Shown here one piece after another: positions 28,632-48,553 of a stretch of DNA of 64,000 bases. The position numbers and the translations under genes were made by a program. How positions within the stretch are numbered: position 1 is the first letter of the stretch; the number at the start of each line of letters is the position of its first letter. Source of the stretch: an uncultured Elusimicrobia bacterium (GTDB taxonomy: Bacteria; Elusimicrobiota; Elusimicrobia; UBA1565; UBA9628); the NCBI GenBank assembly GCA_903881545.1, contig CAIRTQ010000094.1:1479-65478 (forward strand), in the 5' to 3' direction. A model generated the notes under the pieces. It searched no databases. It had not been told where the DNA came from and was given only the letters and a program-made list of their open reading frames with translations.

Positions 28632-29624
28632 ATGGGTCATATCGCTACAGAGGGCGACGTGCAGGCCGCCGAGCGGCTGGGGCAGGCCAAGGCGGATATG
28701 CTGCGCGGCATCCGTTCGGTCATCATCGGTCAGGAGCAGGTGATCGAGGAGATCCTGATCGCGCTCTTCGCGCGCGGGCATTGCCTGCTCGAAGGCGTGC
28801 CCGGTCTGGCCAAGACCTTGATGATATCGAGCCTGGCGCGGCTCCTGGATCTGAAGTTCTCACGCATCCAGTTCACGCCGGACCTGATGCCTTCGGACTT
28901 GACGGGAACCGAGATCCTGCACGAAGACCCTCAGACCCGGCAGCGCACCTTCCGCTTCCTGCCGGGGCCGATCTTCGCCAACATGATCCTCGCCGATGAG
29001 ATCAACCGCACCCCGCCCAAGACCCAGTCCGCGGTGCTCGAGGCGATGCAGGAGAACCAGGTGACGTCGGCCGGCGCGACCCGGCCCTTGCCGCGGCCCT
29101 TCTTCGTGATGGCGACGCGCAATCCCATCGAGCAGGAGGGCACCTACCCTCTGCCCGAGGCCCAGCTCGACCGTTTCTTCCTGCAGATCGCGGTGGACTA
29201 CCCGTCGGCCGACGAGGAGCGCCGCATCGTGACGGAAACGACGGGGGACAAGGAGGTGCGGCTGACGCCGGTGCTGGGCGCCGCCGAGGTCGTGGCTCTG
29301 CAGGACCTGGTGCGCCGGGTCCCGGCGCCGGATTCGGCCGTGGACTATGCGGTGCGTCTGGCGCGGCGGACCCGGCCGGAGGCGGCGGGCGCCCCCGACG
29401 AGGTGAAGAAGTGGGTGGCTTGGGGCGCGGGGCCGCGGGCCAGCCAGGCTTTGGTGGTGGGGGCCAAGGCACGGGCCTTGCTGAACGGGCGCTTCGCTGC
29501 TTGTCTTGACGACGTGAAGGCCGTGGCCAAGCCGGTCCTGCGGCATCGCTTGGTGCTCAATTTTCAGGCCGAAGCGGAAGGGGTCAAGGCGGACTCCCTG
29601 GTCGAGCGGCTCCTGAGGGACTGA
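28632..29624 (+). CDS. moxR: MoxR-family AAA+ ATPase
   Basis: 330 aa with Walker A (GVPGLAKT), Walker B (ILADEINR) and a MoxR-like sequence throughout. Confidence 0.85.
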
Positions 29625-30963: not shown

Positions 30964-31557
30964 TCAGCCGAGGCAGAGCGATACTAAGGTGTAGATGCCC
31001 AGCCCCGTGAAGATGAGGCCGCCGATTCCGCGGATGACCTTGAGCGGCAGGAATCTCTGGAGCATCCTTCCCCCGTAGGCGCCCAGCACGGTGACGCACA
31101 CGAGCGCGGCGCTCGATGCGGCGAAGACTTGGTAGGGCTGGTGGGTCTTGGCGGCTAAGTTGGCAGCCTGGATCTGGGTGAGGTCGCCGAATTCGCCGAT
31201 GAAGATGATCCCAAAGGCGGTGGCGATTTCTCTCCAGCGCCCGGCGGCATGCTCGGGCTCGGCCTCGCGCGCGCCTTCGGCTTCCTCCCTTTCTTCGGGC
31301 ACGAAGAAGAGATAGGCCGCACCTCCCAGGAACAACAGTCCGACGATGGTGTCCTTGATGTGGCCGGGCAGCAGGGTGAGCAGGCCGCCTGCGGTAACGG
31401 CGATGGCCATATGCACGATGAAAGCGCTCGATGCGCCGAGGATCACCGAGGATGGCCGGGCGCGCGTGCTCATGACGATGGTGGCGATCATCGTCTTGTC
31501 GGGAAGTTCGAGCAGGAACATCAGGGCGAAGATACCCAGCATGGCCCCGATGTTCAT
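30964..31557 (-). CDS. UPF0016/GDT1-family membrane protein (putative Mn2+/Ca2+:H+ transporter)
   Basis: 197 aa with two E-x-G-D-(K/L)-T-like motifs (ELPDKT, EFGDLTQ) in a duplicated 3-TM architecture. Confidence 0.7.
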   Translation of the reverse strand: MNIGAMLGIFALMFLLELPDKTMIATIVMSTRARPSSVILGASSAFIVHMAIAVTAGGLLTLLPGHIKDTIVGLLFLGGAAYLFFVPEEREEAEGAREAEPEHAAGRWREIATAFGIIFIGEFGDLTQIQAANLAAKTHQPYQVFAASSAALVCVTVLGAYGGRMLQRFLPLKVIRGIGGLIFTGLGIYTLVSLCLG

Positions 31558-31582
31558 CCTGTCCCCCTAAGACCGCCTACGG

Positions 31583-32725
31583 CTATCGGTTGACGTGCAC
31601 GACCTTCGCCGGCGGGAATCCGTTGAAGTGCGTGGACGAGGCGTGGCTGTAGGCCCCGATGTCCGGGCTGTAGAGCAACTCTCCGAGCTCTAAGTCCTCG
31701 GGCAGGTTCTCCGCCATGGAGATCACATCCAGCGCGTCGCAGGTTGGCCCGAACACCGAGCAGATTTGTTCCCGCCCCTTGCGGAACGCCTTCATGTGGT
31801 AGTGGCAATGGTCGAAGATGATGCCGGAGTAGGTGTGGTACACCCCGTCGTTGACGTAGTAGCAGAGCTTGCCGTCGCGCACCGCCTTGCCGATGATCTT
31901 CACCACCGAGGTCCCCGCGGTCGCGATCATGAACCGGCCGGGCTCGGCCAGGATCTCGATGTCCGGCGGGAACAGCCGGTCCAGCTCCTTGTTGATGGTC
32001 CGGGCCAAGTCGCGGAACGGCTTGACGGTGTTGTCGTACGGGGCCGGGAATCCCCCCCCGATGTCGAGCAGGTTCATCTTGTTGTAGCCGCGCTCGCGCG
32101 TCTCCTTGAAAATGTTGGCCGCCAGGTTGATGGCCTGGACGTAGTTCTCGAAGTTCGTGGTCTGGCTGCCCACGTGGAAGCTCAGGCCCTCCACGACCAG
32201 CCCGGCCTTCACCGCCGCGAGGATGAGGTCCACGGCCTCGCCCGGCGCGGCGCCGAACTTGGAGGACAGCTCCACCATGGCGCCCGTGTTGGCCACCTTC
32301 AGGCGCAGGGCGAGTCCCGCGTGCGGCGCGTGCTTCTTGATCTTGCGGACCTCTTCGATGTTGTCGAAGGTCACCAGGGGGCGGTACTGGTCGAGCTGCT
32401 CCAGGGTCTCGGTGGCCTTGATCGGGTTGGCGTAGATGATCTTGTCCCAGATGTAGTCCTGGCGCCGGCGCGCGGACAGGTTCTTGATGTTCTCATGGAC
32501 GATGAGGAACTCCGGGAAGGAGGCCACATCGAAGCTCGCCCCCGCCTTGTACAGCGTCTCCACGATCTCGGGCAGGGGTTCGGCCTTGACCGCGTAGTAG
32601 GCCTGCACCCGCGGCAGGTGCTTCTTGAACTCCGCGTAGTTGCGGCGGATCTGGTCGTGGTCCACCACGAAGAGCGGCGTGCCGTGCCGCGCGGCGAGCT
32701 TCTGCAGGCGGTTGAGCGGTAGCAA
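31583..32725 (-). CDS. Type III PLP-dependent decarboxylase, ornithine/lysine decarboxylase-like
   Basis: 380 aa from a TTG start preceded by GGAGGA and a 6-nt spacer. Motifs FHVGSQ, DIGGGFP and GPTCDALD. Confidence 0.8.
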   Translation of the reverse strand: MLPLNRLQKLAARHGTPLFVVDHDQIRRNYAEFKKHLPRVQAYYAVKAEPLPEIVETLYKAGASFDVASFPEFLIVHENIKNLSARRRQDYIWDKIIYANPIKATETLEQLDQYRPLVTFDNIEEVRKIKKHAPHAGLALRLKVANTGAMVELSSKFGAAPGEAVDLILAAVKAGLVVEGLSFHVGSQTTNFENYVQAINLAANIFKETRERGYNKMNLLDIGGGFPAPYDNTVKPFRDLARTINKELDRLFPPDIEILAEPGRFMIATAGTSVVKIIGKAVRDGKLCYYVNDGVYHTYSGIIFDHCHYHMKAFRKGREQICSVFGPTCDALDVISMAENLPEDLELGELLYSPDIGAYSHASSTHFNGFPPAKVVHVNR

Positions 32726-32748
32726 GGTTTTCCTCCGGGCGCGGTGGA

Positions 32749-34206
32749 TTAGTCTCCGTCCGTGATCAGGAAGTTCGTGAACTGCCAGGGATCCTTCCTG
32801 TCGACGGCCGGGTTGTTGAAGCCGTGGAACGCGTTGGTGTAATGCTCCAGCGGCGTCCAGGACGAGGGCGTCGAGATGAACTTGCCCAGGTACGGCTTGG
32901 CGGTCTTCAGGATGGGCTCGTGGGGCAGGTCGTCGGGCACCAGCACGCCCCGGCTCGGGTTCTCGATCATCCAGAGGGAGGCGGCGACCACCGAGATGGC
33001 GACCTGCATGGTGGTGGCGTTCTGGTGCGGGACCAGGCGGCGGGACTCCGCGATGCTGAGGTCGCTGCCCACCCACCAGGAGTTGTAGGGATGGCCCATG
33101 ATCAGCGCGCCGAGGACGTCGGATCCGGTCGTGATCTCGTCGGTCATGATGCGCAGCTTGGGCTGCAGGCGGTAGTCGTCGCCGCGCAGCTCGTTGAGCG
33201 AGACGATGGCCGCGTCGCTGGGGCAGTAAGCATAGTGCACCGTAGGGCGGTACACGGCCTTGCCGCCCTTCCACACCGTCAGCTTGTCGGAGATGGTGAA
33301 GGCCTCGCCGTGGCGCACCACCATGCCGTGGATGCAGTAGTTCGGCACCCAGGAGCAGACCCAGGTGTTGATGCCCATGCGCGCCAGGCAGATCTGGTTG
33401 CGCGGGCCTTGCTTGTGCTCGAAGGCATAGGGCGGGAGCTTCTTCTCGTGCGTGCCCCAGCCCAGCTCCGCCGTGGTGGTGCCTTCCTCGCGGAAGCCCT
33501 CGATGCTCCAGGTGTTGACGAACTCGTTGACGCGCTTGGGCTGGTCGGAGATCTGCGTGTCGCGCTCGCTGCAGTGGATGACCTTGACGCCCAACTGCAT
33601 GGCGAGCCGGTTGAAGGTCCGGTCCTTGATGAGCTGGCGCAGCTCATCGGCGGCCCGGCCCTTGACCTTCTTCTCCGCGAGGAGGCGCTCGCCGATGGCG
33701 ATGAGCCCGTACTTGGTGAAGTGCGAGATCAGGCCGGGGTTGGCGCCGTGCTCGAGCACGGCAGTCGGTCCGGGGCGGTCCCACTTGGCGATGAGGCGCC
33801 GGACTTTCATGTGCCGCCAGTAGAGGGTACGCTCGGTGGGATGCTTGTTCAAGGCGCCGGCGTAGGGGTCCCAGACCTCGGTGGAGGTGTTGATGTAGAG
33901 CACGCCGCGGTCGTGGCACCACTGCAGGAGCTCCTCGCAGTCGATGTTCCAGGCCAGGTCGATGAGCAGGTCGCCGGCGGCGAGATGCTTCTTCAGCACG
34001 GAGCCGAGGTTGGCGCGCGTGATGCGCTGGCGCACGAAGCGCACGCCCTTGGCGGTGAAGGGCTTAAGGGCCTGCCGGCGGTCCTCGAAGTCCATGACGG
34101 TGATGTTGCGCGCCGGGACCTTCAGGAGCTTGAGCAGGATGGGCAGGGCGCATTGGGCCACGGCGCCGTAGCCCAGGAACAGAACCTTGTTGTCGAATTC
34201 GATCAT
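32749..34206 (-). CDS. Homospermidine synthase-like enzyme (saccharopine dehydrogenase NAD-binding family)
   Basis: 485 aa from the ATG (MIEFDNKVLFLGYGAVAQ) with an AAGAGGA Shine-Dalgarno. Size and N-terminal Rossmann motif are consistent with bacterial HSS. Carboxynorspermidine dehydrogenase is not excluded. Confidence 0.6.
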   Translation of the reverse strand: MIEFDNKVLFLGYGAVAQCALPILLKLLKVPARNITVMDFEDRRQALKPFTAKGVRFVRQRITRANLGSVLKKHLAAGDLLIDLAWNIDCEELLQWCHDRGVLYINTSTEVWDPYAGALNKHPTERTLYWRHMKVRRLIAKWDRPGPTAVLEHGANPGLISHFTKYGLIAIGERLLAEKKVKGRAADELRQLIKDRTFNRLAMQLGVKVIHCSERDTQISDQPKRVNEFVNTWSIEGFREEGTTTAELGWGTHEKKLPPYAFEHKQGPRNQICLARMGINTWVCSWVPNYCIHGMVVRHGEAFTISDKLTVWKGGKAVYRPTVHYAYCPSDAAIVSLNELRGDDYRLQPKLRIMTDEITTGSDVLGALIMGHPYNSWWVGSDLSIAESRRLVPHQNATTMQVAISVVAASLWMIENPSRGVLVPDDLPHEPILKTAKPYLGKFISTPSSWTPLEHYTNAFHGFNNPAVDRKDPWQFTNFLITDGD

Positions 34207-34444
34207 TTCAATCCTCTTGCCGGCCTCGTGGGAATTTGGGCTCATGAATAATAGCATGATTGAGGCGCGAGGGAAAACCGCGCATCAAATCATATGAAAC
34301 ATTAAGAGTGTCCCTAAGTCGTACGTGGCGTGGTTTTTGTACGCCCGCTCGCCGATGTTGGCGAGCGGAACCGGAGGCCGAAGGCCGACGGAGCTGTGGC
34401 CGTCATTTGGATACGCTCCCGGCTTCGTTTCCGGGATATATCAA

Positions 34445-34516
34445 GTTATCTCCGACCTTATCTCCGACCTTATCTCCGACCTTATCTCCGACCTTATCTC
34501 CGACCTTCTCCCGCGC
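34445..34516. repeat. 12-nt direct tandem repeat (C/G)TTATCTCCGAC x5 plus a degenerate 6th unit
   Basis: Read directly from the sequence: gttatctccgac followed by four copies of cttatctccgac, then cttctcccgcgc. On the minus strand it encodes (KVGD)n. Confidence 0.85.
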
Positions 34517-34660
34517 CTTTAACGAACGCTCTGGCGAGCGATGAAACACGGCTCGGAAAAATCCGTTCGCTTCGAACTCAGGCGCCTTGAGCCCCGCCTC
34601 GGCCATGGCGTCCTTCATCCGCTTCATGCGCTGCGCCACTTTATGAAAGAGTTGCTGACA
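34445..34660 (-). pseudogene. Remnant of a RecG-like/AlbA_2-HATPase_c_4 'putative transcriptional regulator' gene (C-terminal fragment only)
   Basis: Minus-strand frame encodes ...AQRMKRMKDAMAEAGLKAPEFEANGFFRAVFHRS followed by the (KVGD)5 repeat. The GL.xPEFE...F.V.F.R motif matches the C-terminal region of this regulator family. No N-terminal ATPase part is present. Confidence 0.35.
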
Positions 34661-34792
34661 CCTTGCTGCGACATAGGCACAAGAGCGCAGCTGGGGCTTG
34701 CGGGGAGCAGCCGCTTAGGTGCATTCCGCTAACAGTACAAGCTGCATCTTTCGTCGAGAGAGTTGGTTTCAGGGCCGACTTGTTGGCGCAAA

Positions 34793-37700
34793 CTACTCCT
34801 TCTCAAACCCATGATTTTCGAACTTGAGGGTACGGCAATTCTCGGTGACGGTACGGACTACATGGTCTGGAACACCGAATGGGATATTCGCCTCGACCTC
34901 CAGGGTGACCTTGACCTCGGAGCCCACGATCCCGGCGAGGTGCGCGATAACCTCGTCGGCAATGCGGCCGGCGTCGCGGCCGACCCGCGTTGTTTCAAGC
35001 GTTACGCTCCCATGGAAACGCTTCGGTGGCGCCGCCACTACAGCAACCTTGGCGCTGGGAGTGCTGCTTCCCGACACCGCGATTGATGGGCCGCCGGACC
35101 CATTGGAAGGTTTCGCCGCCTCGTCCGGCGCTTGAGGGGCTTCGACTGCCAGTTGACGTTGGGCAGCATCTGGACGTACTATCAGGCCCAATGGACTGTC
35201 CTCGGCAATCCAGATGTGTTGACCGAAACGGAGACCACGATAACGGCCTGCGGTTTCGTCAAAACTCTCGGCATAAGCGAAAGAGTCTTGCATCCAGGTC
35301 AACAGAGCAAGGCCGCTCAAGATCGCATCGATGAGAACGGCTGAATCCTTTAGCCGCGGTAGATAGAGATACCGAGCGAAGTCCTCAGCTAATTGCTGGA
35401 TCGCCACATGATCCCCGCCGGCCTGTGCCGTATCCCGCGATGCGGCTGGCGCGCGCCACAGAGGGACCTGATCCAATTCCAATCGCAACCGGCTGGCCGC
35501 TAGCCCCGTAATCAAGAGTTCATCTTTACACAGCTTCTTGCTTGCACGAACCGCCAACGCATCCTGGCCTGTAAGACGGAAGGACTGCCATTCGACTGGT
35601 CCTTGTGGGGTTGCCTGTGTAGGCACAATCAACCACTGGTAGGTTTCTGGCAATCGGGCCGCAACCGCGCTGCTGGCGTTTTCCTTCTGTGCTACAGCCT
35701 GCTTGCTCTGGTGTGGGTCAAGATTGAGCGTTTCCGCTTCGTCGACGATGGAGGACCACGCCAGAAATCGGCGGATGGCCTCGTCCAGGTCTTGAAGCCG
35801 GTTTTTATCGGGCGCGAGAAAAACCAGGGCGTTACGGTAGATGCGCGGAGCGGTCCCGCGATTCTGCACCATCTCTTTCGCGGCCGCGATGGCCGGGCTC
35901 TCCGTGTCCTTAGTGTGCGGATACTCAATGCCGAATACGACCAGCCGAGCGTCCTTATCATCAGGCACGTCACCCGATGTCTTCGGCAATGGATGGATGC
36001 GGCTGAAGTCTCCGGCCTTGCGCAAATCATTGCGGAGCCACTTGCCGACTTCTTCCGCCACGGCATCCGGGTCCGACTTGAGTTGCTCGGCTCGGTCATC
36101 GGCCAGTTTCGTCACCGTCGGCTGTGTCGAATACCAATAGCGAGCAGAATCCTGGTAAAGAAAGGTTGCGGCACCGGCGAGCCGGCGCAAAGCATCGCCG
36201 AAGATGGCCGGCGACTCACCCGGCATCACGCAGCCCAACTTAATCCACCTGTCCTCCAGGCCCTTGTGGGCCGCCTTGGCTGTTGGGGCCGAACCAAGAT
36301 AGACTGTTCGCGCCACACGGCGGCAGGCGGAGTACTTGCCGAGGTTCGGCGTTTCCGCGTCAATGCGCAGCGGAACCGAGTTGGGGCCATCCACATCCTT
36401 TTCGATCACCGGCACCCAGTTGTCGGAGAGATAGCGGGTCAATTCGAACTGCACGCGAGGGTCGTCAATCGGGATATTTGAAGGCAGGATCAACGGACTG
36501 CGGTCGCCTTTCTCCCAGAGGCTGTGGATCACGGTGGCCATCAGACGCAGGACGCCCCGGGTGCGCTGGAACTTCACCAGCGTGGACCAGTCGTTGTACA
36601 GCCGATCAAAGACCTCTGGATGAATAGGATAGGCGGCCTTCAGCCGCCTCTCGTAGTCGCTATCGTGGCACTCCGGTGGAAACTCCGCCTGCTGGGTGCG
36701 ATAGAGGTCGAAGAACGCCTTTGCCACGGTGTCGCGGGCGACAAACTGGTCCTGCTCGATCAAGGGCTCGAACAGCCGCCGGCGCACGATCTCGAACCCC
36801 TCTTCGGCGCTGGCCGGCCGCCAAGATGCTTCCACGCGGCCAATCGAATTGCGCAGGCGGTCAAGCGCGGCCCGGCCGCGCTCACCGCCCACCTCTATGT
36901 CATCGGCCTGCGCGTGTGGCGACCCGGTCGTATCGGACGCCGGCAGACTAACCACCAGCAAGCACTGCTTCGCAAGCTTGGCGGATTCCGTGAGCGCCTG
37001 GGCGAAGGTGAAGTGCGTCTCGAAGTTGCCGCCTGGCAGGTCGCCCTGATCGTGGAGTTGGCGGGCGTAGGCTACCCATTCGTCAATGAGGATCAGGCAC
37101 GGACCGTAGTCGTTGAACAGGGCACGCAGTGCATCCCCGGGATTCGTGGCTCTCTCATCGTCCGCCTGAATGCGCTTAAAAGCCTTCTTAGCTTCTTTCT
37201 CACCGCCAGCCGAGTAGCCGAGCTGCCAAGCGATTTCCCCCCACAAGGTGCGGATCACGGTTCCGCCTGGCTTGGTCACCGGGTTGCCGGGGGAAATCTT
37301 GTTGCCCACCAAAACAACTCGATTGACCTTCGGCAGCTTGGTCACTTCGGCGTGCTGGAGGACCGAGTCCACACCAAGAAGCTCTCCGGGCGCGATGCCG
37401 GAGAAGAGGTGATAGAGGGCCAGCATGGAATGGGTTTTGCCCCCCCCGAAGTTCGTCTGGAGCTGAACGACCGGATCGCCACCCATGCCGCTAAGCCTCT
37501 GGGCGGCACTGGCCAGCAAGCCCCGCAAACTTTCCGTGAGGTAGGTGCGGCGGAAGAATTCCTTCGGTTTGCGGTACTCGTCCGAACCTTCGCCTAAATG
37601 AACCTGCCATAGGTCGGCGGCGAACTCCGCCTGCTGATACTTCCCGCTGGCCACGTCCTTGTGGGGACTCGCAACCTCCTTCCAAGGTTTAAGCCCGGCT

Positions 37701-38194
37701 TGCGCCTGTGTCTCGATGGTTGTGCTGGCGCTCTTGCGCTTTTCCGTGCGCACTTGCTCGTCGAAGCGTACGCGGAGCAATTCCATCTTCATCTTTTCGA
37801 CTTCGTCCGCCTCCGGTGCGGATACGGAAGCCAGAAGCCGGGCGGCGCTGTCCAGGGCGCGGTAGGCGTCGTCGGTGCTGAAGGGCCGCTGATGCGCCCA
37901 GCGATTGCGGGTTTCCCGCAACTCGCTGACTAGCGTGCGTTCGGCCTGCCCCAAGGTTTTGCGGAAAACATCGTTCCACTGGTTCCACATCGTAACGAGG
38001 ATGGCGGATGCATCCCACTGCGGCGCCTCCGGGGTTCCTAGGAGTTGAAGCTGGGAATCGGCGAGGGTGCGCTTTGTGTCAGCGAACCAGTTCGGCGGAT
38101 TGGTGTTTTTTAGCTCGCGCTCGACGAAGGGTTTTAGGCCTGACGACAGCAACTCCAACATCTTGCCGACGCGTTCGTGATTGGTAATGGCCAT
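34793..38194 (-). CDS. DUF499-family P-loop ATPase (BrxC/PglY/HmaC-like) with an N-terminal Swt1-like HEPN domain
   Basis: 1133 aa. The N-terminal ~130 aa carry a HEPN R-x4-H motif (RNRWAHQ). Walker A (NFGGGKTHS) and Walker B (CLILIDEWVAY). Size and architecture fit DUF499 defence ATPases. Confidence 0.8.
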   Translation of the reverse strand: MAITNHERVGKMLELLSSGLKPFVERELKNTNPPNWFADTKRTLADSQLQLLGTPEAPQWDASAILVTMWNQWNDVFRKTLGQAERTLVSELRETRNRWAHQRPFSTDDAYRALDSAARLLASVSAPEADEVEKMKMELLRVRFDEQVRTEKRKSASTTIETQAQAGLKPWKEVASPHKDVASGKYQQAEFAADLWQVHLGEGSDEYRKPKEFFRRTYLTESLRGLLASAAQRLSGMGGDPVVQLQTNFGGGKTHSMLALYHLFSGIAPGELLGVDSVLQHAEVTKLPKVNRVVLVGNKISPGNPVTKPGGTVIRTLWGEIAWQLGYSAGGEKEAKKAFKRIQADDERATNPGDALRALFNDYGPCLILIDEWVAYARQLHDQGDLPGGNFETHFTFAQALTESAKLAKQCLLVVSLPASDTTGSPHAQADDIEVGGERGRAALDRLRNSIGRVEASWRPASAEEGFEIVRRRLFEPLIEQDQFVARDTVAKAFFDLYRTQQAEFPPECHDSDYERRLKAAYPIHPEVFDRLYNDWSTLVKFQRTRGVLRLMATVIHSLWEKGDRSPLILPSNIPIDDPRVQFELTRYLSDNWVPVIEKDVDGPNSVPLRIDAETPNLGKYSACRRVARTVYLGSAPTAKAAHKGLEDRWIKLGCVMPGESPAIFGDALRRLAGAATFLYQDSARYWYSTQPTVTKLADDRAEQLKSDPDAVAEEVGKWLRNDLRKAGDFSRIHPLPKTSGDVPDDKDARLVVFGIEYPHTKDTESPAIAAAKEMVQNRGTAPRIYRNALVFLAPDKNRLQDLDEAIRRFLAWSSIVDEAETLNLDPHQSKQAVAQKENASSAVAARLPETYQWLIVPTQATPQGPVEWQSFRLTGQDALAVRASKKLCKDELLITGLAASRLRLELDQVPLWRAPAASRDTAQAGGDHVAIQQLAEDFARYLYLPRLKDSAVLIDAILSGLALLTWMQDSFAYAESFDETAGRYRGLRFGQHIWIAEDSPLGLIVRPDAAQRQLAVEAPQAPDEAAKPSNGSGGPSIAVSGSSTPSAKVAVVAAPPKRFHGSVTLETTRVGRDAGRIADEVIAHLAGIVGSEVKVTLEVEANIPFGVPDHVVRTVTENCRTLKFENHGFEKE

Positions 38195-38197
38195 GGA

Positions 38198-40027
38198 TTA
38201 CTCCGTTTGGGACAGCTTTGGCGTGTCCAACACCACAATGTCCTTAAAGTGTTCCGCCAGCCGATCTAACTTCTCGGCCACTTCAGGAGGCAAGTCGCTG
38301 GATGCGACGTCCTCGATCATTTGGCAATATTCGCCCTTTCGCAGAAGGACTGGCTGCTTTTGCCGCCGCGCGAACTCCTCGAACACGCCTTCGGCGAATT
38401 CGCTCATCTTGAGGTTACTGAGTAATGTCTTCTGCAAGCTGGCACTGGCCGTCTTATACTCGTCAAGCTGCTGGCGATCTCCAGCAAACACCTTCTTCAG
38501 AAGATGCTCATCCAGCACCTCCTGCATCGTTTTGACGTTCGACTCGGTGAACAAACCGCCTTCCTGATCGAAGACGCCGACAACAAATTTCAGAATGAGA
38601 TCAGGAGTAATATAGTAATTCTCAATCTCATAGCGTTGCCAATAAAGGATATCCAGGCCCTCCCCGCTTTCATCAGACAAGTCCCGCGCATCCTTGTCCA
38701 GAATGGCCAATCCCTTAAACTCCGGCACCAGTCCCTTCATGGCATGAAAATGGCGCTTAATGTTTTCCTGGAATGCCCCGCCCAGCCGATCTAGTTGATT
38801 GTCGAGCGTGTCGGCGGGCCCGACATTACGCGTGTAGTAGTAGTTGATGCGCCCCGCGAGCACCCCTGACGCAGGATGTTTAAGCTTCGCCGCGAGCGCC
38901 TTGAGCGTGTCAAAATCCGTGGATCCTTCGATATAGAGGATTCGGGGACACACTCGCGCTTTGTAGTAATGCTCGACCCCGAATGTCCGCAACGAGTTTC
39001 GCACGTTCTGCATCGTTGCAAGGTCGGCGGCCGTCCCATTAATAAGCAACGTCAGGTTGGTCTCGATCGCGTCGTCCAGAATGACTTCCGAATGTGTGGC
39101 CACCACAACTTGACTATTGTTCTCCGCCGCCACGTCCTTAAGCATCTCATAAACTTGTTTCTGCCGTAAAACTTCGAGATGAGCATCCGGTTCGTCAATC
39201 AGAAGCACGCTGCCCTTATTTGTGTAGAGATAGGAAAGGATCAACAGCATTTGCTGGAACCCACGCCCTGCCAGCGCGATGTCCATGTCGGCGTCAGTAT
39301 CTGGCTGGCTATAGCGCACGACCAATTCGCCGCGCTTCTCGTCTAGGCGTGGTCTGCCGAGCGCAACACCGAACAGTTTCTGGATCAGACGACCGATGCG
39401 GTCCCAATCTTCTGTTCTCTTTTCCTTGTCGTTCTCAACGACCTTGAAGCAGAGGTTGCGGAGCACCTGCGCCGTCTGGCCTTGCCCCAGCAGGACGTTA
39501 ACGCGGCCCTCGGGCACGAGGGTTTCGACCGGCTCAATTCCTGACATCGGGTAGAGCAAATGAAATGGGATGCTGCTCGCATGCGCAATTAGAGCATCGT
39601 CCTTCAGCGTCTCCTCACACGGCCGGCAGTAAAGGACCTCGCTGTCACGCACGGTAAACTCCATGCGACAGTCCTTGACCAGTCCGCCGTGCTCGACGCC
39701 CACATTGACCGTCAAGCGAATGGAGGCATTGTCCTTCCGCACCCGCATTCGGTTCCACAAAAAGCGATTCTCGGAGACCGGCACCTCAAGGATGCTCAGC
39801 CGGTTGATGCCTGCTGCGACCCGCTCTCTCTTTTCCTTCTGCCGAGGCCGGCCCTTGCGCTCGTACCATGCCTGCACGCCGCGGCTCCATAGGGCGAGGG
39901 CCTGGATCACGCTGGTTTTCCCGGCATTGTTTGGTCCGATCAGTACGGCAGGATGTCCCAGGTCCACATGAATTTTCCCACCAAATATCTTAAAGTTCTC
40001 GATTTCGACATAACGAATGCCTCGCAT
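38198..40027 (-). CDS. ABC-type (AAA_15/AAA_21, OLD-family-like) ATPase fused to a C-terminal DUF4435/TOPRIM-like domain (single-polypeptide PARIS AriA-AriB-like)
   Basis: 609 aa with Walker A (GPNNAGKTS), Walker B (VLLIDEPDAHLE) and H-loop (VVVATHS). The C-terminal ~200 aa carry YIEGSTDFD and DKDARD motifs resembling DUF4435 (YVEG ... DRD). Confidence 0.7.
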   Translation of the reverse strand: MRGIRYVEIENFKIFGGKIHVDLGHPAVLIGPNNAGKTSVIQALALWSRGVQAWYERKGRPRQKEKRERVAAGINRLSILEVPVSENRFLWNRMRVRKDNASIRLTVNVGVEHGGLVKDCRMEFTVRDSEVLYCRPCEETLKDDALIAHASSIPFHLLYPMSGIEPVETLVPEGRVNVLLGQGQTAQVLRNLCFKVVENDKEKRTEDWDRIGRLIQKLFGVALGRPRLDEKRGELVVRYSQPDTDADMDIALAGRGFQQMLLILSYLYTNKGSVLLIDEPDAHLEVLRQKQVYEMLKDVAAENNSQVVVATHSEVILDDAIETNLTLLINGTAADLATMQNVRNSLRTFGVEHYYKARVCPRILYIEGSTDFDTLKALAAKLKHPASGVLAGRINYYYTRNVGPADTLDNQLDRLGGAFQENIKRHFHAMKGLVPEFKGLAILDKDARDLSDESGEGLDILYWQRYEIENYYITPDLILKFVVGVFDQEGGLFTESNVKTMQEVLDEHLLKKVFAGDRQQLDEYKTASASLQKTLLSNLKMSEFAEGVFEEFARRQKQPVLLRKGEYCQMIEDVASSDLPPEVAEKLDRLAEHFKDIVVLDTPKLSQTE

Positions 40028-40039
40028 AGCTTTACCCCT

Positions 40040-41506
40040 TTAGAACAGCTCTGCCTGCGGTGTCTGAGATTCCCCGTCCTTGCGTGATAGGCGGGCCAAT
40101 TCCGGCCAGCCCATCACCAGCGCATTATAGCTTTGAGCGCCCTTACTCCACTGCTTCTTCTCGCAGACGGTGAACAGTTTATAGGCCAGGTCGCGGGCCA
40201 CATCCGCTTTACCGCCCAACTTGCGCAAGAGCGCCGCTGTGGCCGCGTCGCCTCGCTTCTCGGATACATACACGCGCAGCAGGTGATGGGTCATCTCCCA
40301 TACTGTCAGGCGCTTGTCCGTAGTGGGATCCCAGTCAGCCGGCAACTCCTCCGGACGAAGAAGACGGACCTGGTTGCCCTTGACCTCCACGATGCCAGCG
40401 GCGACGAGGCCATTCATGGCAGTGGCCTGCGCATTGGCCAGCAGGTTGGCCTGTCCGGCCTCGCCCCATTCAAATCCCGTGCCGGCGAACCAGGTCACCG
40501 CCCACCGCGTGTCCTTGTCGAGTTCCTCAACGGCCTCACCAAGCAATTCATCCTTCATGCCGTTGATGAGGGCCAGCGCGGTGCGAACGGCCATCGGCTT
40601 GCCATTGCTCTCCAACACGGCGGAGTAGCGGGAAAAGACCGCCATGCCGGGACCGATGGCCGCTTGCGCAAAGTCCACCGGGGCCACGTTGCCCTGTTGT
40701 AGATGGTGTAGCGCTGGCGGTAGCTCGCGTTTTAACTCTGCCACGAACGCATTCCGGCCGACTCGTAGCGCATCCGCCGGGCGCGGCCTACAGGCGAGCA
40801 CGATGTAGGAGGCTAGAGCGTTGGAACCCATCGCGCGCATTCGCCATGCTTGCGATGCGCGTACCGGCCACGTCCCAGTAATCTGGAAGTTGCTTGAGAT
40901 CAGTGCGTCAAGGAGCGTCTCCCAGCCTGTTGTGAGATCAATTCCCGCGGCCTCCGTCGATGCTTCATCCGCACCGCTTCCCTCGTCGTCTTGCTTGAAA
41001 GCGTAGTAAACGGTAAGCGGGAAGTGCGGATCCATCTCGTCCCGCAGGGCCGTGAAAGCCTTCCGGAATCCCGTCTCAAAATGTTGCTTAGCCCTTTCCT
41101 TGTCGCCCTCGAACCGGTCGGGAGAGGCGATCAGTTCCGTCATCTTGGGGACGAGCACGGTACGGAAAATGTCCGGATAATGTTCTCCGATTGTGCGTCT
41201 CAGCCAGACATAGGAGAAGTCCGACAGCGCGCCGTAGCTAATATTGTCGTAGTAGGGCGGATCGGTGCTGACCAGCAAGTTGCGGAGGCCGTTTGCGCCG
41301 GGGCAGCGTCGGCTTGGTGGACTGTCGCTACGGCTTCCGGATTCGGCGTTATCGTCTGAATGGCATCTGCGCATATGTCGACCGCGGTGTGCCAGCACAC
41401 GGCTTTTTCGCCCATTATGTTTGGCTCGACGAAGTCCCAGACCAACCGAATGACCTGTAGTCCGAAGAGATCCATTGACTGCTGACCACTCGCTTTCCAC
41501 CGGCAC
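40040..41506 (-). CDS. DUF1156-family N6-adenine DNA methyltransferase, C-terminal part (real portion begins near nt 41300, containing DPPYYDN motif IV)
   Basis: LLVSTDPPYYDNISY... and the downstream C-terminal domain. Upstream of about 41300 this frame is R/S-rich nonsense. Confidence 0.75.
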   Translation of the reverse strand: MPVESEWSAVNGSLRTTGHSVGLGLRRAKHNGRKSRVLAHRGRHMRRCHSDDNAESGSRSDSPPSRRCPGANGLRNLLVSTDPPYYDNISYGALSDFSYVWLRRTIGEHYPDIFRTVLVPKMTELIASPDRFEGDKERAKQHFETGFRKAFTALRDEMDPHFPLTVYYAFKQDDEGSGADEASTEAAGIDLTTGWETLLDALISSNFQITGTWPVRASQAWRMRAMGSNALASYIVLACRPRPADALRVGRNAFVAELKRELPPALHHLQQGNVAPVDFAQAAIGPGMAVFSRYSAVLESNGKPMAVRTALALINGMKDELLGEAVEELDKDTRWAVTWFAGTGFEWGEAGQANLLANAQATAMNGLVAAGIVEVKGNQVRLLRPEELPADWDPTTDKRLTVWEMTHHLLRVYVSEKRGDAATAALLRKLGGKADVARDLAYKLFTVCEKKQWSKGAQSYNALVMGWPELARLSRKDGESQTPQAELF

Positions 41507-42870
41507 AGAGCATTATTGAAGTCTGCGCAGCGATCAACCGCGAGGGCAAGAAACGTCGCCACCGACTGGGCATAGGCACCGGCCTCTGCATGGGTCCAAC
41601 CCGCCGCAATAGCATCGCGCCGCACGTCCGCGTCGATCTCCTTTACTAGGTCACTCAAAGTCACCATTGCCGTGAGCTGCCGGGGAGTAAAAAGCTGCCA
41701 GTGCTTCCGAATGCCGTAGTTCTGAACCCGGAAGCCTAGTGCTTCATCGGGAAGATCTGTATCTGGGAAGCCCTGCGGTTTGGCTGAATTAGCGGCCTCG
41801 ACCTGCTCCGGGCTTATCGGGATATAAGTACGACCGCGGGGGAGCTCAGCTACAACTGCGAGCATGACGCATCCCAGCCGACCACTTTGCCCTTCACTGC
41901 GAATGTACTCAAATGGGATGGGTGCGTCGGTGAGCAGGCACCGAAACCCCCCCCTGCCTCCCTTCGTTCCCTCATCAATTTGTGTCCGATTTACGGGCGC
42001 TCCCGTCCGCACCACAAACCGGTAAGTACACTTGGCCTTGTCCACCACCGGCTCCATCCAGTGATAAGGCGGCTTCTTGTCCTTCCTTGGGGAATTCAGC
42101 CAATACGTGCTGATGAGCGGCACATGGATGCCTCGTGCCGCAGGGTTCGGGCTAGCAACCGTGCGAGCCCAAATCCATGCGATGACGTTGGCCTCGCCGC
42201 TTCCATTTTCCTTAGGCAGGTGCACCTTAGGGTAAAGACTTCCAATCTTCGCATACGCTCTATGGCGAACCAGCCGCCCGTAGTAGCGTACGTCGGCTGC
42301 GAGTCCGTTCGCGCCGTGCCAAGACTGTGTACCTCCAATCCGCTTACGGTCCTCCGAATTTACGGGCGGTCTATTCACCCAGCGCGGCGCAAGCTCCAGA
42401 TTGCACTTGTTGAGCATCACTGCGATAGGATTTAGGTCGCCTGCGTGGGCTTCAAATCCAAGTCGGTTAGCCTCAAGAGGGATGGATCCACCGCCGGCAA
42501 ACGGGTCAAGCACGGGCGGGAGCTTTCCGTCGCAGTGCTTGAGCATCTCCTCCTGTGCCTCAGCATAGACCTCCGGATGTTCATGGAGTTTCTTGCCCAT
42601 GAGTCGCCGGATGATCCCGAACAGTCGCTCCCGCTCAGCATCCTGCTTGGCCTCGCTCTTGCCCGCCCACGCCGGATTATCCGAAGGATCGGTCACGACC
42701 GAAGCGAACAGCACCGCCCGCGCGGTCGGCAGCGGCAACCGCGCCCACCAGTGGTGGATGCCCTTCGGATGCGGCCCGATTCCCGGCATCTTGTCGTAGG
42801 ACGACGCATCGTTGATCTCTGGCAGCGGGAGCGCCACCTCGATAAGCTTCTTTTTATACGGAACCGTCAT
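41200..42870 (-). CDS. DUF1156-family N6-adenine DNA methyltransferase, N-terminal part (real portion 42870 down to about 41300; frameshifted relative to the C-terminal part)
   Basis: Starts MTVPYKKKLIEVALPLPEIN (DUF1156 signature N-terminus) with SAM-binding DPFAGGGSIP (motif I). The frame degenerates after about 41300. Its ATG overlaps the PIN gene's TGA stop as ATGA. Confidence 0.75.
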   Translation of the reverse strand: MTVPYKKKLIEVALPLPEINDASSYDKMPGIGPHPKGIHHWWARLPLPTARAVLFASVVTDPSDNPAWAGKSEAKQDAERERLFGIIRRLMGKKLHEHPEVYAEAQEEMLKHCDGKLPPVLDPFAGGGSIPLEANRLGFEAHAGDLNPIAVMLNKCNLELAPRWVNRPPVNSEDRKRIGGTQSWHGANGLAADVRYYGRLVRHRAYAKIGSLYPKVHLPKENGSGEANVIAWIWARTVASPNPAARGIHVPLISTYWLNSPRKDKKPPYHWMEPVVDKAKCTYRFVVRTGAPVNRTQIDEGTKGGRGGFRCLLTDAPIPFEYIRSEGQSGRLGCVMLAVVAELPRGRTYIPISPEQVEAANSAKPQGFPDTDLPDEALGFRVQNYGIRKHWQLFTPRQLTAMVTLSDLVKEIDADVRRDAIAAGWTHAEAGAYAQSVATFLALAVDRCADFNNALCRWKASGQQSMDLFGLQVIRLVWDFVEPNIMGEKAVCWHTAVDICADAIQTITPNPEAVATVHQADAAPAQTASATCWSAPIRPTTTILATARCRTSPMSG

Positions 42871-43418
42871 GGGCACGCTCTGAGCAGGCGCGGATGAGAG
42901 GTCAAAACATCGATCCCGCCAGAGGTGAAATCGCCATCGTTGGTGACCAGTTTCCAGCCATGATGACGGCAAGTCTCGGCGAGGAGGCCGTCGTTGAAGT
43001 CATTCACTCCAGTCTCAAAGTCAGCAAGTACTTGCGTGACGTTGGCGGCGGAAAATGGATGGTCGTGCCTAGTGCAGAGTTTAAGCATTTCTCGTGCGTA
43101 CGTGGCGGCGCCTGCCCCCACAGACTTAAAAGCGGGGGATTTGCGGAACATTTTAAAGTCCGGCTGCGCCGCCTTGTGTAATGCAATCCACTCGATCCGG
43201 CAGTAGCGGTTGAGGTACTCGCTGAGGATCAGTGCATCCATAACCAGGCGTGATCCAGCGGTCAGTATGCCCTTCAGGGCGTTCGAATAGCTGGCAGCAC
43301 GCCAATCGGGCTTATTGGACGGGGCCGGATAGAGGTAGAGCCAGACATTGGCATCCAGCAAAAAGGGCTCGTTCTTCTGGAAAGCATACTTGGAGAGGTC
43401 GTGAGCTTTATTCTTCAT
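42867..43418 (-). CDS. PIN-domain nuclease (VapC-like)
   Basis: About 183 aa from MKNKAHDL. Conserved acidic residues in LLDANVWL, DALILSEY and TNDGDF. Confidence 0.7.
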   Translation of the reverse strand: MKNKAHDLSKYAFQKNEPFLLDANVWLYLYPAPSNKPDWRAASYSNALKGILTAGSRLVMDALILSEYLNRYCRIEWIALHKAAQPDFKMFRKSPAFKSVGAGAATYAREMLKLCTRHDHPFSAANVTQVLADFETGVNDFNDGLLAETCRHHGWKLVTNDGDFTSGGIDVLTSHPRLLRACP

Positions 43419-43767
43419 TATTGCCCACCTCTTCCTTCCACGCCGCATCAAATCGTTTCGGGGCTTTGAAATACGCCTTAGCGTTTTCGACCACGCGCTT
43501 GAGGACTATGCGGTCTTCCTCATCCATGTCGCGGACCGAAAGCAGTTCCCTAATTCGGTCTTCAGGGAACTTGCCGTAGAGCTGCCCAATCGCGGCGTTG
43601 AGGAAAGACGAGATCATCGTCTCCACCTGCTCAAAGGAGAGGGAAACTTTCTTCCCCTCGCTCAGCAGGAGAGCGATCTTGTCGTAAACGCGTTGGCCAT
43701 CATCGGCAGATACGCCCAACGGACCACCGACGATATCGAATACACGAACCACAATTGGCTCACTCAT
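43408..43767 (-). CDS. DUF4325-like (STAS-like) small protein
   Basis: 119 aa (MSEPIVVRVFDIVGG...GKKVSLSFEQVETMISSFLNAAIGQLYGKF) resembling the STAS-like DUF4325 family. Overlaps the PIN gene by 11 nt. Assignment is from memory of the family and is unverified. Confidence 0.45.
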   Translation of the reverse strand: MSEPIVVRVFDIVGGPLGVSADDGQRVYDKIALLLSEGKKVSLSFEQVETMISSFLNAAIGQLYGKFPEDRIRELLSVRDMDEEDRIVLKRVVENAKAYFKAPKRFDAAWKEEVGNNEE

Positions 43768-43785
43768 CTTTCCACTCCATTCTGT

Positions 43786-44655
43786 TTAGAAAATGCTCTC
43801 TGGCGGTATCTCCGACGCCAGAACATAGGATTCTGTGTCGGCAGTGTTGATCTCGATGGTCACGGCCGTACCAGGGAAATCTGCAGCCATCTTCGCGAAG
43901 GACTCCTGGCCATCGCCGAACTCGTAAAATCCGAATCGGGAGGCGATCTGAATTCGGCCCTTGTTCAGCCGGACGAATTCCTGAAGAAACTTCAGGCCCA
44001 ATCCCCCCGGTTGAGGCCCTCTCTTCGTGGTATGGCCCTCCTGCAATGCCCAGCGAATCGCATCAACAGAAGACATTTTGCCGCCGAGAAATCGGCGGAC
44101 GCTTTCCCTAATGCCAATGCCCGCATCCACAATCGTCAGATCGAGTCTTTGCTTCTGCGGGAAGAACTGTCCGCAAACGAAGATCCCGAGTTCTGACTCG
44201 GAATGAATCACGGCATTCTGGAAGACCTCAAAAATCTTCTTCTTAAACACTTTGCCGAGCCCTTCGGACATGCGAGGAATGCCCTTGCCTCTCAGGTGCC
44301 GTTCCACGTAATCGGCAAAGAGCCCTTCGTCCGAACGCTGGAGGCGGCGAAACGGAATGGTGGTTCGGTTCACGTCGTCCAACGCCGGGTAACGGTATTG
44401 CGTCAAGAAACCGTTTTTCCGCAAGATGTGTTCCACCATTTCCGGAACGCTGACCACTTCAATGGCATTGAAGCGATCTGCTACTCGCGCCAGCACCGCC
44501 CCGAGAGGGGCAGCCATGTTGGCGGCGAAAAAACCGACTTGGGACAGATCGAGTTCCAAACGACTGGCCGAAAGCATAGCAGTTTCTCTGGCCAACTCCG
44601 CCAGCCGTTCGTATCCATCCCGGCCGCTTTGGACTGTTGGCAAGCGGGAGATCAT
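43786..44655 (-). CDS. GHKL-superfamily ATPase (histidine-kinase/RsbW-like ATP-binding domain) with an unknown N-terminal domain
   Basis: 289 aa with N-box (EVFQNAVIHS), G1 (IVDAGIGI) and G2 (GGLGLKF). Its ATG overlaps the helicase TGA as ATGA. Confidence 0.7.
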   Translation of the reverse strand: MISRLPTVQSGRDGYERLAELARETAMLSASRLELDLSQVGFFAANMAAPLGAVLARVADRFNAIEVVSVPEMVEHILRKNGFLTQYRYPALDDVNRTTIPFRRLQRSDEGLFADYVERHLRGKGIPRMSEGLGKVFKKKIFEVFQNAVIHSESELGIFVCGQFFPQKQRLDLTIVDAGIGIRESVRRFLGGKMSSVDAIRWALQEGHTTKRGPQPGGLGLKFLQEFVRLNKGRIQIASRFGFYEFGDGQESFAKMAADFPGTAVTIEINTADTESYVLASEIPPESIF

Positions 44656-47600
44656 GATGGCGCTCCAGCCCGCTCTAGCAAATCTGCAAAATTGTAATTT
44701 ACGCTGGTCACGCCGAAGTCTGGCTCCCGCCGGAAAGGGTGGCGGACATAATGAACCCGCTGTTTCTCGCCGTCGAATTCAACGATGGCGAGAATGAAGT
44801 CATCGGGTTTGTTGAGCGAGTACAGGATTTCATTCTTGGTGACGGTGATCGTGGCGGCGCCCGTGACGCGTCCCTTCACCTCAATAAAGCGCAGCCGCCC
44901 GGTGCCAGGCACGCGGCTCTCGATGTCGTAGCCCAGCTTCTCGGTCTCGCGGTCGGCGGGGATGAAGCCCAGGCCGCGCTCGACCATCATCACGGCCTCG
45001 CGTGCTCGCGCTGCCGCGGCCAAGGTGTCGGCTGCGACGCGTGGGAGTTCGGCGGAATGACCTGTCATGGCGGCAAGCAGGCCCGCAGGTATCACCACAA
45101 GGCCGCCCAACACGACCGGGGGCAAAGGGGCGATCTGCCGTTCGAGTTTGAGTTCCTCCATCCGCTTCTGCAACCGTCCCTGAAGGGCATCCGCGCGTTT
45201 CCGCGCTTCATCCGAGTTAAGTCGCGCATTAGGCCTGCCCGCCTGTTCCTGGAGCTTAAGCTCTTCGGCGCGGTGGTCCCAATAGCTGATCTCCTTCGTC
45301 AATCGGTCCTGCACCGCCGCCTCGGTCTTAGCAATGAGATCGAGCTTGCGCGCGCGAACCTCATTAAGGTGTTCGGGCACGACATTCGCGACGGCGTACC
45401 CCTGCGCTTTTTGCTCCAGTTCTCGGGTTATCCAAGCGCATTCCGGTCGGGCCAATATCGCGTCCACCGCCGGTTCGCCGTCCGCCAACGGGCGATAATC
45501 CAGGTAGGGCGCATAATGCGGATTGCGCGCGTTGCCGTCCGCCTCCAGTTCCACATAAAGCATCCGCTTGGATATGACGCGACGCTCCCCCGCCGCCATG
45601 GCGGCGGCAGGCAGGCCCGTCCGTGCCAGGCTTGCGTCCTGAATGGCATGCTCCAGATAAAAGAGTACGCGAGGGCGTGTCCCGCAGTCGCGCTCGTCGA
45701 CCAGCACCGTGCCGCGGCGCAGCAAATCGCGATGGCGTTCAAGGGTGAGGTCTATGGTGACGTCCAGTAACGGGTGCCCCGGGCACAGGAATGCGGCCAG
45801 TGGCTGGCCCTGCGGAGCGACCAGGGATTTCTCAAAGGCAACCCGCTCGTAGCGCGACAACAACGGCTCGGCGATTCCAATGAGCCGGTCGCGATTGCGC
45901 AGAGGAGATGGGACATGCGCGATCTCATAGCGGCGCGGTTCGCGCTGCTTAACCGAACCCCCCAAACGCTGGAAGGCATCGAGGAAGAAAGATTCAACGT
46001 AATGGGGTTGCAAACGACGCGCCTCGGCTCGCTCCATCTCCTCGCGAATGCGGTACACGCGAGTGGCGTCCATCGCGTCGTGCGCGAGAGCATGTTCTTC
46101 GAGCAAATCGCGCAACTTGGCAGGGTCCACGGAATTGGCGACCACTTGCGTAAGCTTGGCGCGAACATCGGGGCGTTCCCCGTAACGAATCGCCTCGATC
46201 AAGAGCTCACGCAGAGGTTTTCCCCCAAATTGGAGCTTCCCTAGCACATCAAAGACTTGGCCTCCCAGGGTTTCCCGGGCCTGTTCCAGCTTTTCCAGCA
46301 GAGTTCGGTATACGTCTCCCTCGCGGGTTTCTTCGGCGACGAGATTCCAAAGATGACAGACTTCGGTCTGTCCAATGCGATGAATACGGCCGAACCGTTG
46401 CTCGATACGGTTCGGATTCCATGGCAGATCATAATTCACCATCAGGTGCGCCCGCTGGAGGTTAATCCCTTCGCCAGCGGCATCCGTCGCCAAAAGGACC
46501 TGAACTGCGGGATCGTGTTTGAATGCTTCCTGCGCCTTCATCCGCTCCTCACGGCCCATGCCGCCATGAATCATCACTACTGCTTCCTTTCGCCCAAGAA
46601 GGGTCGTAATTCGATTCTCTAAGTAGTTGAGGGTGTCGCGGTGCTCGGTGAAGAGGACAAGTTTCTGGCGCGGGGACGAAGTCGGCGGCGGGATTGTCGC
46701 AGACCCGTGAGTGAGTGGGCGCTCAGCCACCTGGGTGGCATGGATGGCGGACGTGAAGATTTCGTTTAACAGTTGGGAGAGCTCACGCCACTTCTTATCC
46801 TCACCGCTCCGGCGGAGCGTGAGCGCCAGCGCTTCAAGGCGCTTTAGCGTCGTGATTTCCGCTTTCAGTTCCGAGATTGTTCGCGCCGCGGTCGACTGGT
46901 CGAGAATCTCCTCTTCCGCCGTCTCGACCTCATTATCAGGGGCGTCTTCGAGATCTTCAACATCCTCATCATCCAGCACCGGGATCCCGGCCGCCATGGC
47001 AGGCGCGGTTACGCTCCCCCGCTGGAGTAATTTCAACTCTTCCAGTTTGCTTTCCAACCGTTCGCGACGACGACGCAACGACTGATAGATGGCTTCAGGC
47101 GACGAGGCCAAACGGCGCTGCAAAATAGTGAGCGCAAAACCGACGGTGCCGGCGCGCTTATCGTTCTGAAGCGCATCAGCCCGGTTGAACTCCTCGCGAA
47201 CGTAGTCGGTCACTTCCTTGTAGAGTTGCGCCTCCGCATCGGAGAGCTTGTATGGAACAGTGTAGGCTATCCGTTCCGGAAACAGCGGAGTCGCATCGAA
47301 CTTGAGCAGCCCTTCCTTGACCATGCGCCGCATCAGATCAGAGGCGTCAGAGGCGTGAACGCCATCACGGAAGCGTCCCTCGAATCTATCCCCATCGAGG
47401 AGCGCCATGAAAAGCTGAAAATCCTCTTCCTTGCCATTGTGCGGCGTCGCGGTCATCAGCAAGAAATTCCGGGTCATAGTGGAGAGAAGCTGACCGAGCT
47501 TGTAGCGCTTCGTATACTTGACCTCGCCATTGAATATGCTGGCGGACATCTTATGCGCCTCGTCGCATACGATGAGATCCCATCGGCAGTCGGGAGCTCT

Positions 47601-48257: not shown

Positions 48258-48553
48258 TTGAGAAGACGCATCCCAGCATCCCATCGCCCGGTAGAAAATG
48301 ATTCTATAAAACCAGCACTAGGCCGGGCTAAGCGCAAGGGCACCATTCAGTCGAGTAGGAGATTTTAGCATGATTGGGCCATCGGGATGCGGCAGACTGA
48401 CAATAGTGCTGGCCGAACTCGACGGCGATAGGACGTAAACTGGTCTCCTCGGCGGCACCTGCGCTTCGCTTAGTGCCGCCGGTTGCGCCCGGCATACGGC
48501 CGCCGGGCGCTCGCTACGGCAAAGCCCGAACTTTATTGTCCCTTATCCGGCGG

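Follow-up and report, generated by a model that had tools for sequence, protein, structure and literature searches.

The window, by which we mean the whole 64 kb stretch of Elusimicrobia DNA that was analysed, has an intergenic gap of 586 bp (34207–34792) between a homospermidine synthase gene and hmaC, and a short gene remnant lies inside this gap. The features of the junction are as follows.

32749–34206, minus strand: homospermidine synthase gene (Pfam Sacchrp_dh; 485 aa in other contigs; GC3 0.953), on the core side of the junction.
34248–34258, minus strand: −10-like box CATGCTATTAT, a conserved motif ∼45 nt upstream of the homospermidine synthase ATG.
34345–34368, no strand assigned: GC hairpin 1, CCGCTCGCC-N6-GGCGAGCGG, with a 9-bp perfect stem (−20.6 kcal/mol, z = −4.1).
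34403–34445, minus strand: non-homologous read-through tail NLIYPGNEAGSVSK* past the 3′ breakpoint of the remnant, with the expected wHTH missing (from comparison with locus L084).
34413–34440, minus strand: GC hairpin 2, directly after the repeat (−14.1 kcal/mol, z = −3.4).
34446–34507, minus-strand frame: perfect 12-nt tandem array, TTATCTCCGACC on the plus strand (TRF).
34508–34654, minus strand: surviving coding remnant QLFHKVAQRMKRMKDAMAEAGLKAPEFEANGFFRAVFHRSPERSLKAR, made up of the last ∼30 residues of HATPase_c_4 and a linker (phmmer, Pfam and a family HMM).
34655–34792, no strand assigned: spacer from the hmaC stop codon to the 5′ limit of remnant homology, with no homology to the family or to the module in locus L094.
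34793–48392, minus strand: Hma module of 13.6 kb (PADLOC; ends from the comparison with L094).

The homospermidine synthase gene most likely starts at 34206 (485 aa) and not at 34257; the former is preferred because a 485-aa protein is called in five other contigs, and it is this start that gives the gap of 586 bp. The GC content is 0.64–0.69 across the synthase gene and falls to 0.53–0.60 from about 34200, so the GC drop first read from the sequence is real; values of 0.54–0.63 continue up to ∼48 kb and then reach up to 0.70. Two GC hairpins had been said to flank the remnant. Both exist and are stable, but both lie on its homospermidine synthase side. Hairpin 1 occurs once in the window and is invariant in L083, a JGI contig from a ∼98% identical strain. 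No U tract of the kind that marks an intrinsic terminator follows either hairpin on either strand, and a terminator scan listed nothing at either. A sigma-70 promoter scan returned zero sites. The Elusimicrobia loci L001 and L051 share the −10-like box, likewise in front of their synthase genes, and the pattern CATGCTAWWAT (minus strand) has exactly two copies in the window, at 34248–34258 and, upstream of hmaA, at 48362–48372. CATGCTAWWAT is probably an extended −10 promoter box of this lineage, and, judging from its conservation, the copy at 34248–34258 is probably the homospermidine synthase promoter, placed outside the remnant.

Mechanical ORF calling gives a 78-aa frame on the minus strand (34403–34639) with a GTG start, reading VAQRMKRMKDAMAEAGLKAPEFEANGFFRAVFHRSPERSLKAREKVGDKVGDKVGDKVGDKVGDNLIYPGNEAGSVSK*, which matches exactly the text given in the earlier note. 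Searched in full against 5.8e9 proteins, this frame yielded low-complexity (KVGD-like) matches alone, and the repeat was therefore taken out of the query. Using phmmer with the 48 residues upstream of the repeat (34511–34654) against 1.84 billion representative proteins, we obtained 42 hits with E < 1e-3, down to 1e-9 for the top one. Those of full length, P0008, P0022 and P0045 (461–468 aa), carry SLFN_AlbA_2 and HATPase_c_4 followed by a wHTH or Fic-like_C domain, and the remnant aligns to residues ∼336–376 of these ∼465-aa proteins, which are the end of HATPase_c_4 and the linker. Pfam run on the fragment alone matches positions 61–89 of the 89 in PF13749, in the expected place, with E = 0.086 and a score of 13.3 bits that falls under the 26-bit cutoff. 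In DNA sequence, the L086 gene has 82% identity to the window from 34633 and the L084 gene (P0028) has 79%; relative to L086, the remnant has in-frame losses totalling 18 nt, and the conserved G-x-G loop is gone. What survives is ∼210 bases, or ∼70 codons, comprising the end of HATPase_c_4, the linker and the (KVGD)n repeat, in line with the ∼70-aa fragment estimated at the outset. These comparisons support the derivation of the fragment from a COG2865-type gene of the AlbA_2/HATPase_c_4 (‘RecG C-terminal’)/wHTH kind, and the RecG-like/AlbA_2-type assignment of the earlier note stands on the phmmer hits and the domain order of the full-length proteins. The RecG name goes with the Pfam title of PF13749, ‘putative ATP-dependent DNA helicase RecG C-terminal’. 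The accompanying label of ‘regulator’ is an annotation habit; the sole solved relative (3LMM) was deposited as an ‘uncharacterized protein’.

With the fragment as query, tblastn against plasmids and phmmer against the PDB gave no meaningful match, and NCBIfam left it unmatched. Many of the short hits start at one motif, and we considered a class of stand-alone small genes; this was rejected as an artefact of gene calling on truncated contigs because the L086 frame extends upstream of the called Met. Other COG2865 members are also rearranged: P0028 (L084 1129–1932) has lost the greater part of HATPase_c_4 through an internal deletion, P0015 is a chimera in which the N-terminus of a ResIII helicase is joined to HATPase_c_4 and an HTH, and P0013 breaks off just past the linker. 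Genes of this family seem to decay and rearrange readily.

We built a family HMM from three full-length members and ran it on the six-frame translation of the entire window. The sole match is at 34463–34645 and covers HMM positions 335–393. Nothing in the six frames of the 64 kb matches HMM positions 1–334, and the N-terminal AlbA_2 domain is thus missing; HATPase_c_4 is incomplete, with just profile positions 61–89 of 89 matching; and no HTH signal was seen in any frame of 34258–34445, where the wHTH would follow the linker. The second half, or any other piece, of a COG2865 gene is absent from the 64 kb, including the DNA beyond the far end of the module. Lacking AlbA_2 and the wHTH, and with no further part of the gene in the window, the fragment is a pseudogene that has been cut short at both ends. 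Its homology to the L084 gene stops at ...GGAGATAA, which is position 34446, and L084 runs on into its wHTH; the 3′ breakpoint thus coincides with the end of the array. The 5′ breakpoint lies within 34655–34792 or at about 34655–34672. Measured against an intact COG2865-type gene, ∼335 N-terminal residues and the wHTH have been lost.

The tandem array at 34446–34507 has a period of 12, 5.2 copies, 100% matches and a TRF score of 124; it is the top-scoring tandem array of the 64 kb window (the runner-up scores 65), and a perfect array of 62 nt cannot have arisen by chance. On the minus strand it encodes (KVGD)5, as had been noticed from the letters alone. The array is a variable-number tandem repeat (VNTR), with identical head-to-tail units and alleles that differ by whole units, and its copy number varies among locally identical strains. 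Copy-number variation, which the earlier note had proposed looking for, is present between strains (5 units versus 3).

L081: 100% identical to window 31506–34672; 5 units.
L082: identical to the window over 3.1 kb save one 24-nt deletion; 3 units.
L083: same hmaC–remnant–synthase order as in the window; 3 units.
ERZ1426829 (37 kb): taken to have 3 units because its spacer is 562 bp and not the 586 bp of the window.

The L084 gene shares the 12-nt unit GTCGGAGATAAG with the window, in four imperfect copies followed by the wHTH, and its linker peptide repeat KVGDKVGDKVGEEVGDK is encoded by the same DNA unit. As the unit of the array is carried in a wHTH-containing gene, the repeat is native to the linker of this gene lineage. 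Period-4 or period-8 linker peptide repeats occur in at least eight of the 42 phmmer hits, so that short peptide repeats before the wHTH are a trait of the family as supposed; in COG2865-type proteins they are frequent and not universal, and the (KVGD)5 of the window is such a repeat. The array was most likely inherited from an intact ancestor gene, in which slippage by whole units would alter the length of the linker and keep the frame; in the relic it most likely acts as a neutral variable-number repeat, growing and shrinking by replication slippage (to 5 or 3 units among nearly identical strains). Elsewhere in the remnant, a 9-nt near-repeat at 34613–34632 (CTTCATCCG ×2.2) encodes the peptide RMKRMK; comparison with L086 suggests that it arose by point divergence from QGIQRMK and not by duplication.

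Between the window and L083 there is ∼1 mismatch in 34446–37200 and a divergence of about 2–3% leftward of this, with the last divergent site at 34437; in this one pair of strains, a recombination tract boundary falls at or near the array. The tract of near-100% identity is ∼2.8 kb long (34446–37300), is set within 2–5% divergence and takes in the remnant and most of hmaC, with its right end inside the HEPN_Swt1 part of hmaC; it indicates recent recombination between strains. It could be proposed that recombination or deletion at the borders of defence islands breaks COG2865 genes preferentially at their 12-nt linker minisatellite. This would fit because the last repeat unit is exactly where the 3′ truncation falls and because the divergence step between the window and L083 comes no more than a few tens of bases from the array; if true generally, such linker repeats would help to drive cassette turnover at variable loci. 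We regard this as a long shot, and as weaker still its variant in which the repeat number would tune read-through from the Hma operon into the polyamine operon.

The contigs of L081 and L082 end at 34672/34671. Assemblies of this population also break at 27362, 28220, 30734 and 31506, so the shared ends at 34672 are weak evidence. Independent metagenome assemblies share end coordinates (30734 twice, 31506 twice and 34672 twice), and left of 28418 the window has no match to the first 250 nt of L089 (1–250); the population is likely to contain mosaic strains side by side.

We find no evidence of function in the remnant: no gene is called there in the complete contig ERZ1426829, no RNA family matches 33900–35100 in Rfam at E ≤ 1, and the comparison with L083 gives no selection signal. 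The remnant has zero substitutions between the window and L083, for which purifying selection was considered and rejected; the zero-substitution tract reaches 2.7 kb into the adjoining hmaC, which favours a recombination tract. The 78-aa frame is still open and AAGGA precedes an internal ATG by 4–5 nt (read by eye), and the frame might be translated; no Shine–Dalgarno sequence could be read before the GTG start. A working region is nevertheless highly improbable, whether it were a small protein of 66–78 aa or a cis element in which the five 12-nt units, as protein-binding iterons or a variable spacer, tuned the synthase or the Hma genes phase-variably. The open frame, the copy number that differs among strains, the position of the array 240–300 nt upstream of the homospermidine synthase start and the stable hairpins adjoining it would all suit such a region. 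However, the peptide is the tail of a larger fold with both flanking domains missing, its GTG start has no Shine–Dalgarno sequence, and gene calling and Rfam are both silent here. The repeat is fully accounted for by inheritance from the coding linker of the homologues, and the likely synthase promoter is ∼190 nt nearer the gene and is conserved in relatives that have no repeat. We therefore infer, with considerable confidence, that the feature is a non-functional pseudogene relic, truncated at both ends and carrying a neutral VNTR, in the debris of the junction. The evidence supports ordinary genomic debris at an island edge and not a working element.

The fragment had been placed at an island edge, and it does sit in the junction of the native polyamine operon, which holds the homospermidine synthase and decarboxylase genes, with a horizontally acquired defence block: PADLOC identifies the neighbouring genes as an Hma anti-phage system, consisting of hmaA, hmaB and hmaC with embedded genes.

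44652–48284, minus strand: hmaA (PADLOC HmaA, 1698 bits).
43786–44655, minus strand: HATPase_c gene (Pfam).
43408–43767, minus strand: DUF4325 gene (Pfam).
42867–43451, minus strand: PIN gene (Pfam).
40040–42972, minus strand: hmaB, frameshifted in the window and called as two ORFs (PADLOC HmaB, 478 + 488 bits).
38198–40027, minus strand: embedded ABC-type ATPase gene encoding a 609-aa AAA_15/AAA_21 protein, GajA/AriA/PtuA-like (Pfam).
34793–38194, minus strand: hmaC (PADLOC HmaC, 1124 bits).

Genes embedded between the hma genes have been described for Hma systems (PMC8565338; bioRxiv 10.1101/2024.01.29.577857). By name, all members of the HmaC cluster belong to Elusimicrobia or Elusimicrobiota; the cluster includes MCX5796464.1, on a 65.9-kb contig, and JGI contigs of 33 and 16 kb. 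In L094 (GCA_016212885.1) the Hma module is found in a wholly different context, with no homospermidine synthase gene nearby. The window and L094 share ∼84% of their DNA sequence from ∼48392 as far as the hmaC stop codon, precisely at 34793, where the homology breaks off; the module is therefore 34793–48392 and the remnant is outside it. The module moves among Elusimicrobia genomes as one unit, with the hmaC stop codon as its end. These limits bear on the idea that the remnant was once an accessory regulator gene, carried by the Hma island downstream of hmaC and since decayed. In its favour are a GC3 equal to that of hmaC, the near-identical tract shared with L083 across the remnant and hmaC, and locus L085, in which an intact COG2865 family member lies between two defence-type helicase genes. 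We nonetheless consider it unlikely, as the L094 module gives way to unrelated DNA at the hmaC stop codon, with no COG2865 sequence in that locus, and the four other related Hma loci (L090–L093) have none downstream of hmaC.

Several further differences were seen within the module. The gene for the DUF1156 methyltransferase, hmaB, has a single-base frameshift at 41278–41296, close to a C4 run and shortly upstream of the DPPY catalytic motif. Both ERZ1426829 and L083 have the gene intact (943 aa), and the frameshift may reflect genuine inactivation, phase variation or an error in the assembly. The middle section of hmaB (41034–42116) gives no DNA alignment to L083, with flanks that are 86–96% identical, and may be a swapped target-recognition region. 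The slot between hmaB and hmaC holds the 609-aa ATPase gene in the window and in ERZ1426829, is empty in L083 (5556–5570), L091 and L094, and contains a GmrSD-type gene in L092 (4280–5989) and L093. These differing contents are live turnover of embedded cassettes.

The composition of the remnant helps to place its origin. GC3 is 0.953 in the homospermidine synthase gene and 0.955 in the decarboxylase gene; it is 0.714 in the non-repeat part of the remnant, 0.715 in HmaC and 0.671 in HmaA. The remnant is island-like, or foreign-like, and not core-like, and so it is not a native core gene that was struck by an insertion. This weighs against the remnant as a classical insertion scar, in which a resident COG2865 gene, until then intact, would have been interrupted when the Hma island entered by site-specific or transpositional insertion, leaving one half of the gene as the remnant. 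Such a history would explain why the remnant is within ∼140 nt of the end of the Hma module and why its 5′ limit is near the recurrent assembly break at 34672. It is very unlikely, however, given the missing second half of the gene and a 3′ truncation that goes beyond what insertion explains. No integrase or transposase is found among the island ORFs, and there is no tRNA at the module edges (the tRNAs of the window are solely at 18.4 and 25.1 kb). A single match of 11 nt links the two edges, and its E-value is at chance level. This 11-mer, CAATCATGCTA (34252–34262 and 48366–48376), was considered as a target-site duplication and rejected; it is better explained by the two −10-like boxes, because one is conserved upstream of the synthase gene in relatives free of Hma and the other is inside the L094 module.

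The earlier note had suggested that the fragment may be the scar of the insertion or recombination event that delivered the island. For the 5′ break this is plausible at most; no target-site duplication, integrase, adjacent tRNA or second gene half is present in the window, and no island-free relative turned up. A search for the empty site gave none. In 185,579 species genomes, the nearest homospermidine synthase loci have 77–80% protein identity and share only the downstream decarboxylase gene; a COG2865 gene was absent from the 10 kb around each of 80 synthase loci of other species, which also speaks against a resident gene at this site. Exact-protein look-ups of the neighbouring genes led either to contigs arranged as in the window or to contigs that stop short of the junction, none of them free of the island, and any order of events is therefore presumptive. 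As insertion cannot explain the 3′ truncation, the 3′ break needs a separate deletion. We infer that the relic is most likely what remains of a gene acquired earlier at this variable locus, the 5′ part of which was probably lost upon the arrival or exchange of the Hma module and the 3′ part of which would have been lost by a deletion with its endpoint exactly at the repeat.

On a larger scale, a MoxR-type AAA ATPase gene (28632–29624) and a DUF58 gene (48473–49462, followed by BatA/VWA genes) are on the same strand of the window, 18.8 kb apart. MoxR-type ATPase and DUF58 genes usually form one operon, and they are adjacent in L068. In the window a permease gene and GDT1 come between them, as do the polyamine operon, the remnant and the Hma module, and the whole interval may be a long-standing variable locus.

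The relic itself is of little consequence, being what is left of a gene of a known family with a slippage-prone repeat. It is of more use as a marker: together with the L094 comparison, it sets the 3′ limit of the mobile Hma module at the hmaC stop codon, and it shows an Elusimicrobia locus that has been remodelled more than once. The difference between 3 and 5 units offers a polymorphism for strain typing in this uncultured population. For annotation, the open 78-aa frame should not be called a gene.

Compared with known systems, the adjacent block is like other Hma systems in having hmaA, hmaB and hmaC on one strand with embedded genes, here HATPase_c/DUF4325/PIN and an ABC-type ATPase, and related loci bear differing embedded cassettes; the remnant is not a part of the system and lies just beyond the 3′ end of the module. 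The remnant resembles COG2865-type proteins (SLFN_AlbA_2, PF04326; HATPase_c_4, PF13749; wHTH or Fic-like_C) in its HATPase_c_4 end and linker, which are 50–88% identical, and in a linker of tetrapeptide repeats at the equivalent position, but differs from them in lacking AlbA_2 and the wHTH and in having HATPase_c_4 reduced to a stub. Functional contingency loci usually shift the frame or alter promoter spacing, whereas the array of the window is in a dead gene, and no phase-variable phenotype is therefore expected from it. The array does resemble bacterial VNTRs that evolve by replication slippage: it, too, is perfect and head-to-tail, with alleles that differ by whole units (5 versus 3) in DNA that is the same otherwise.
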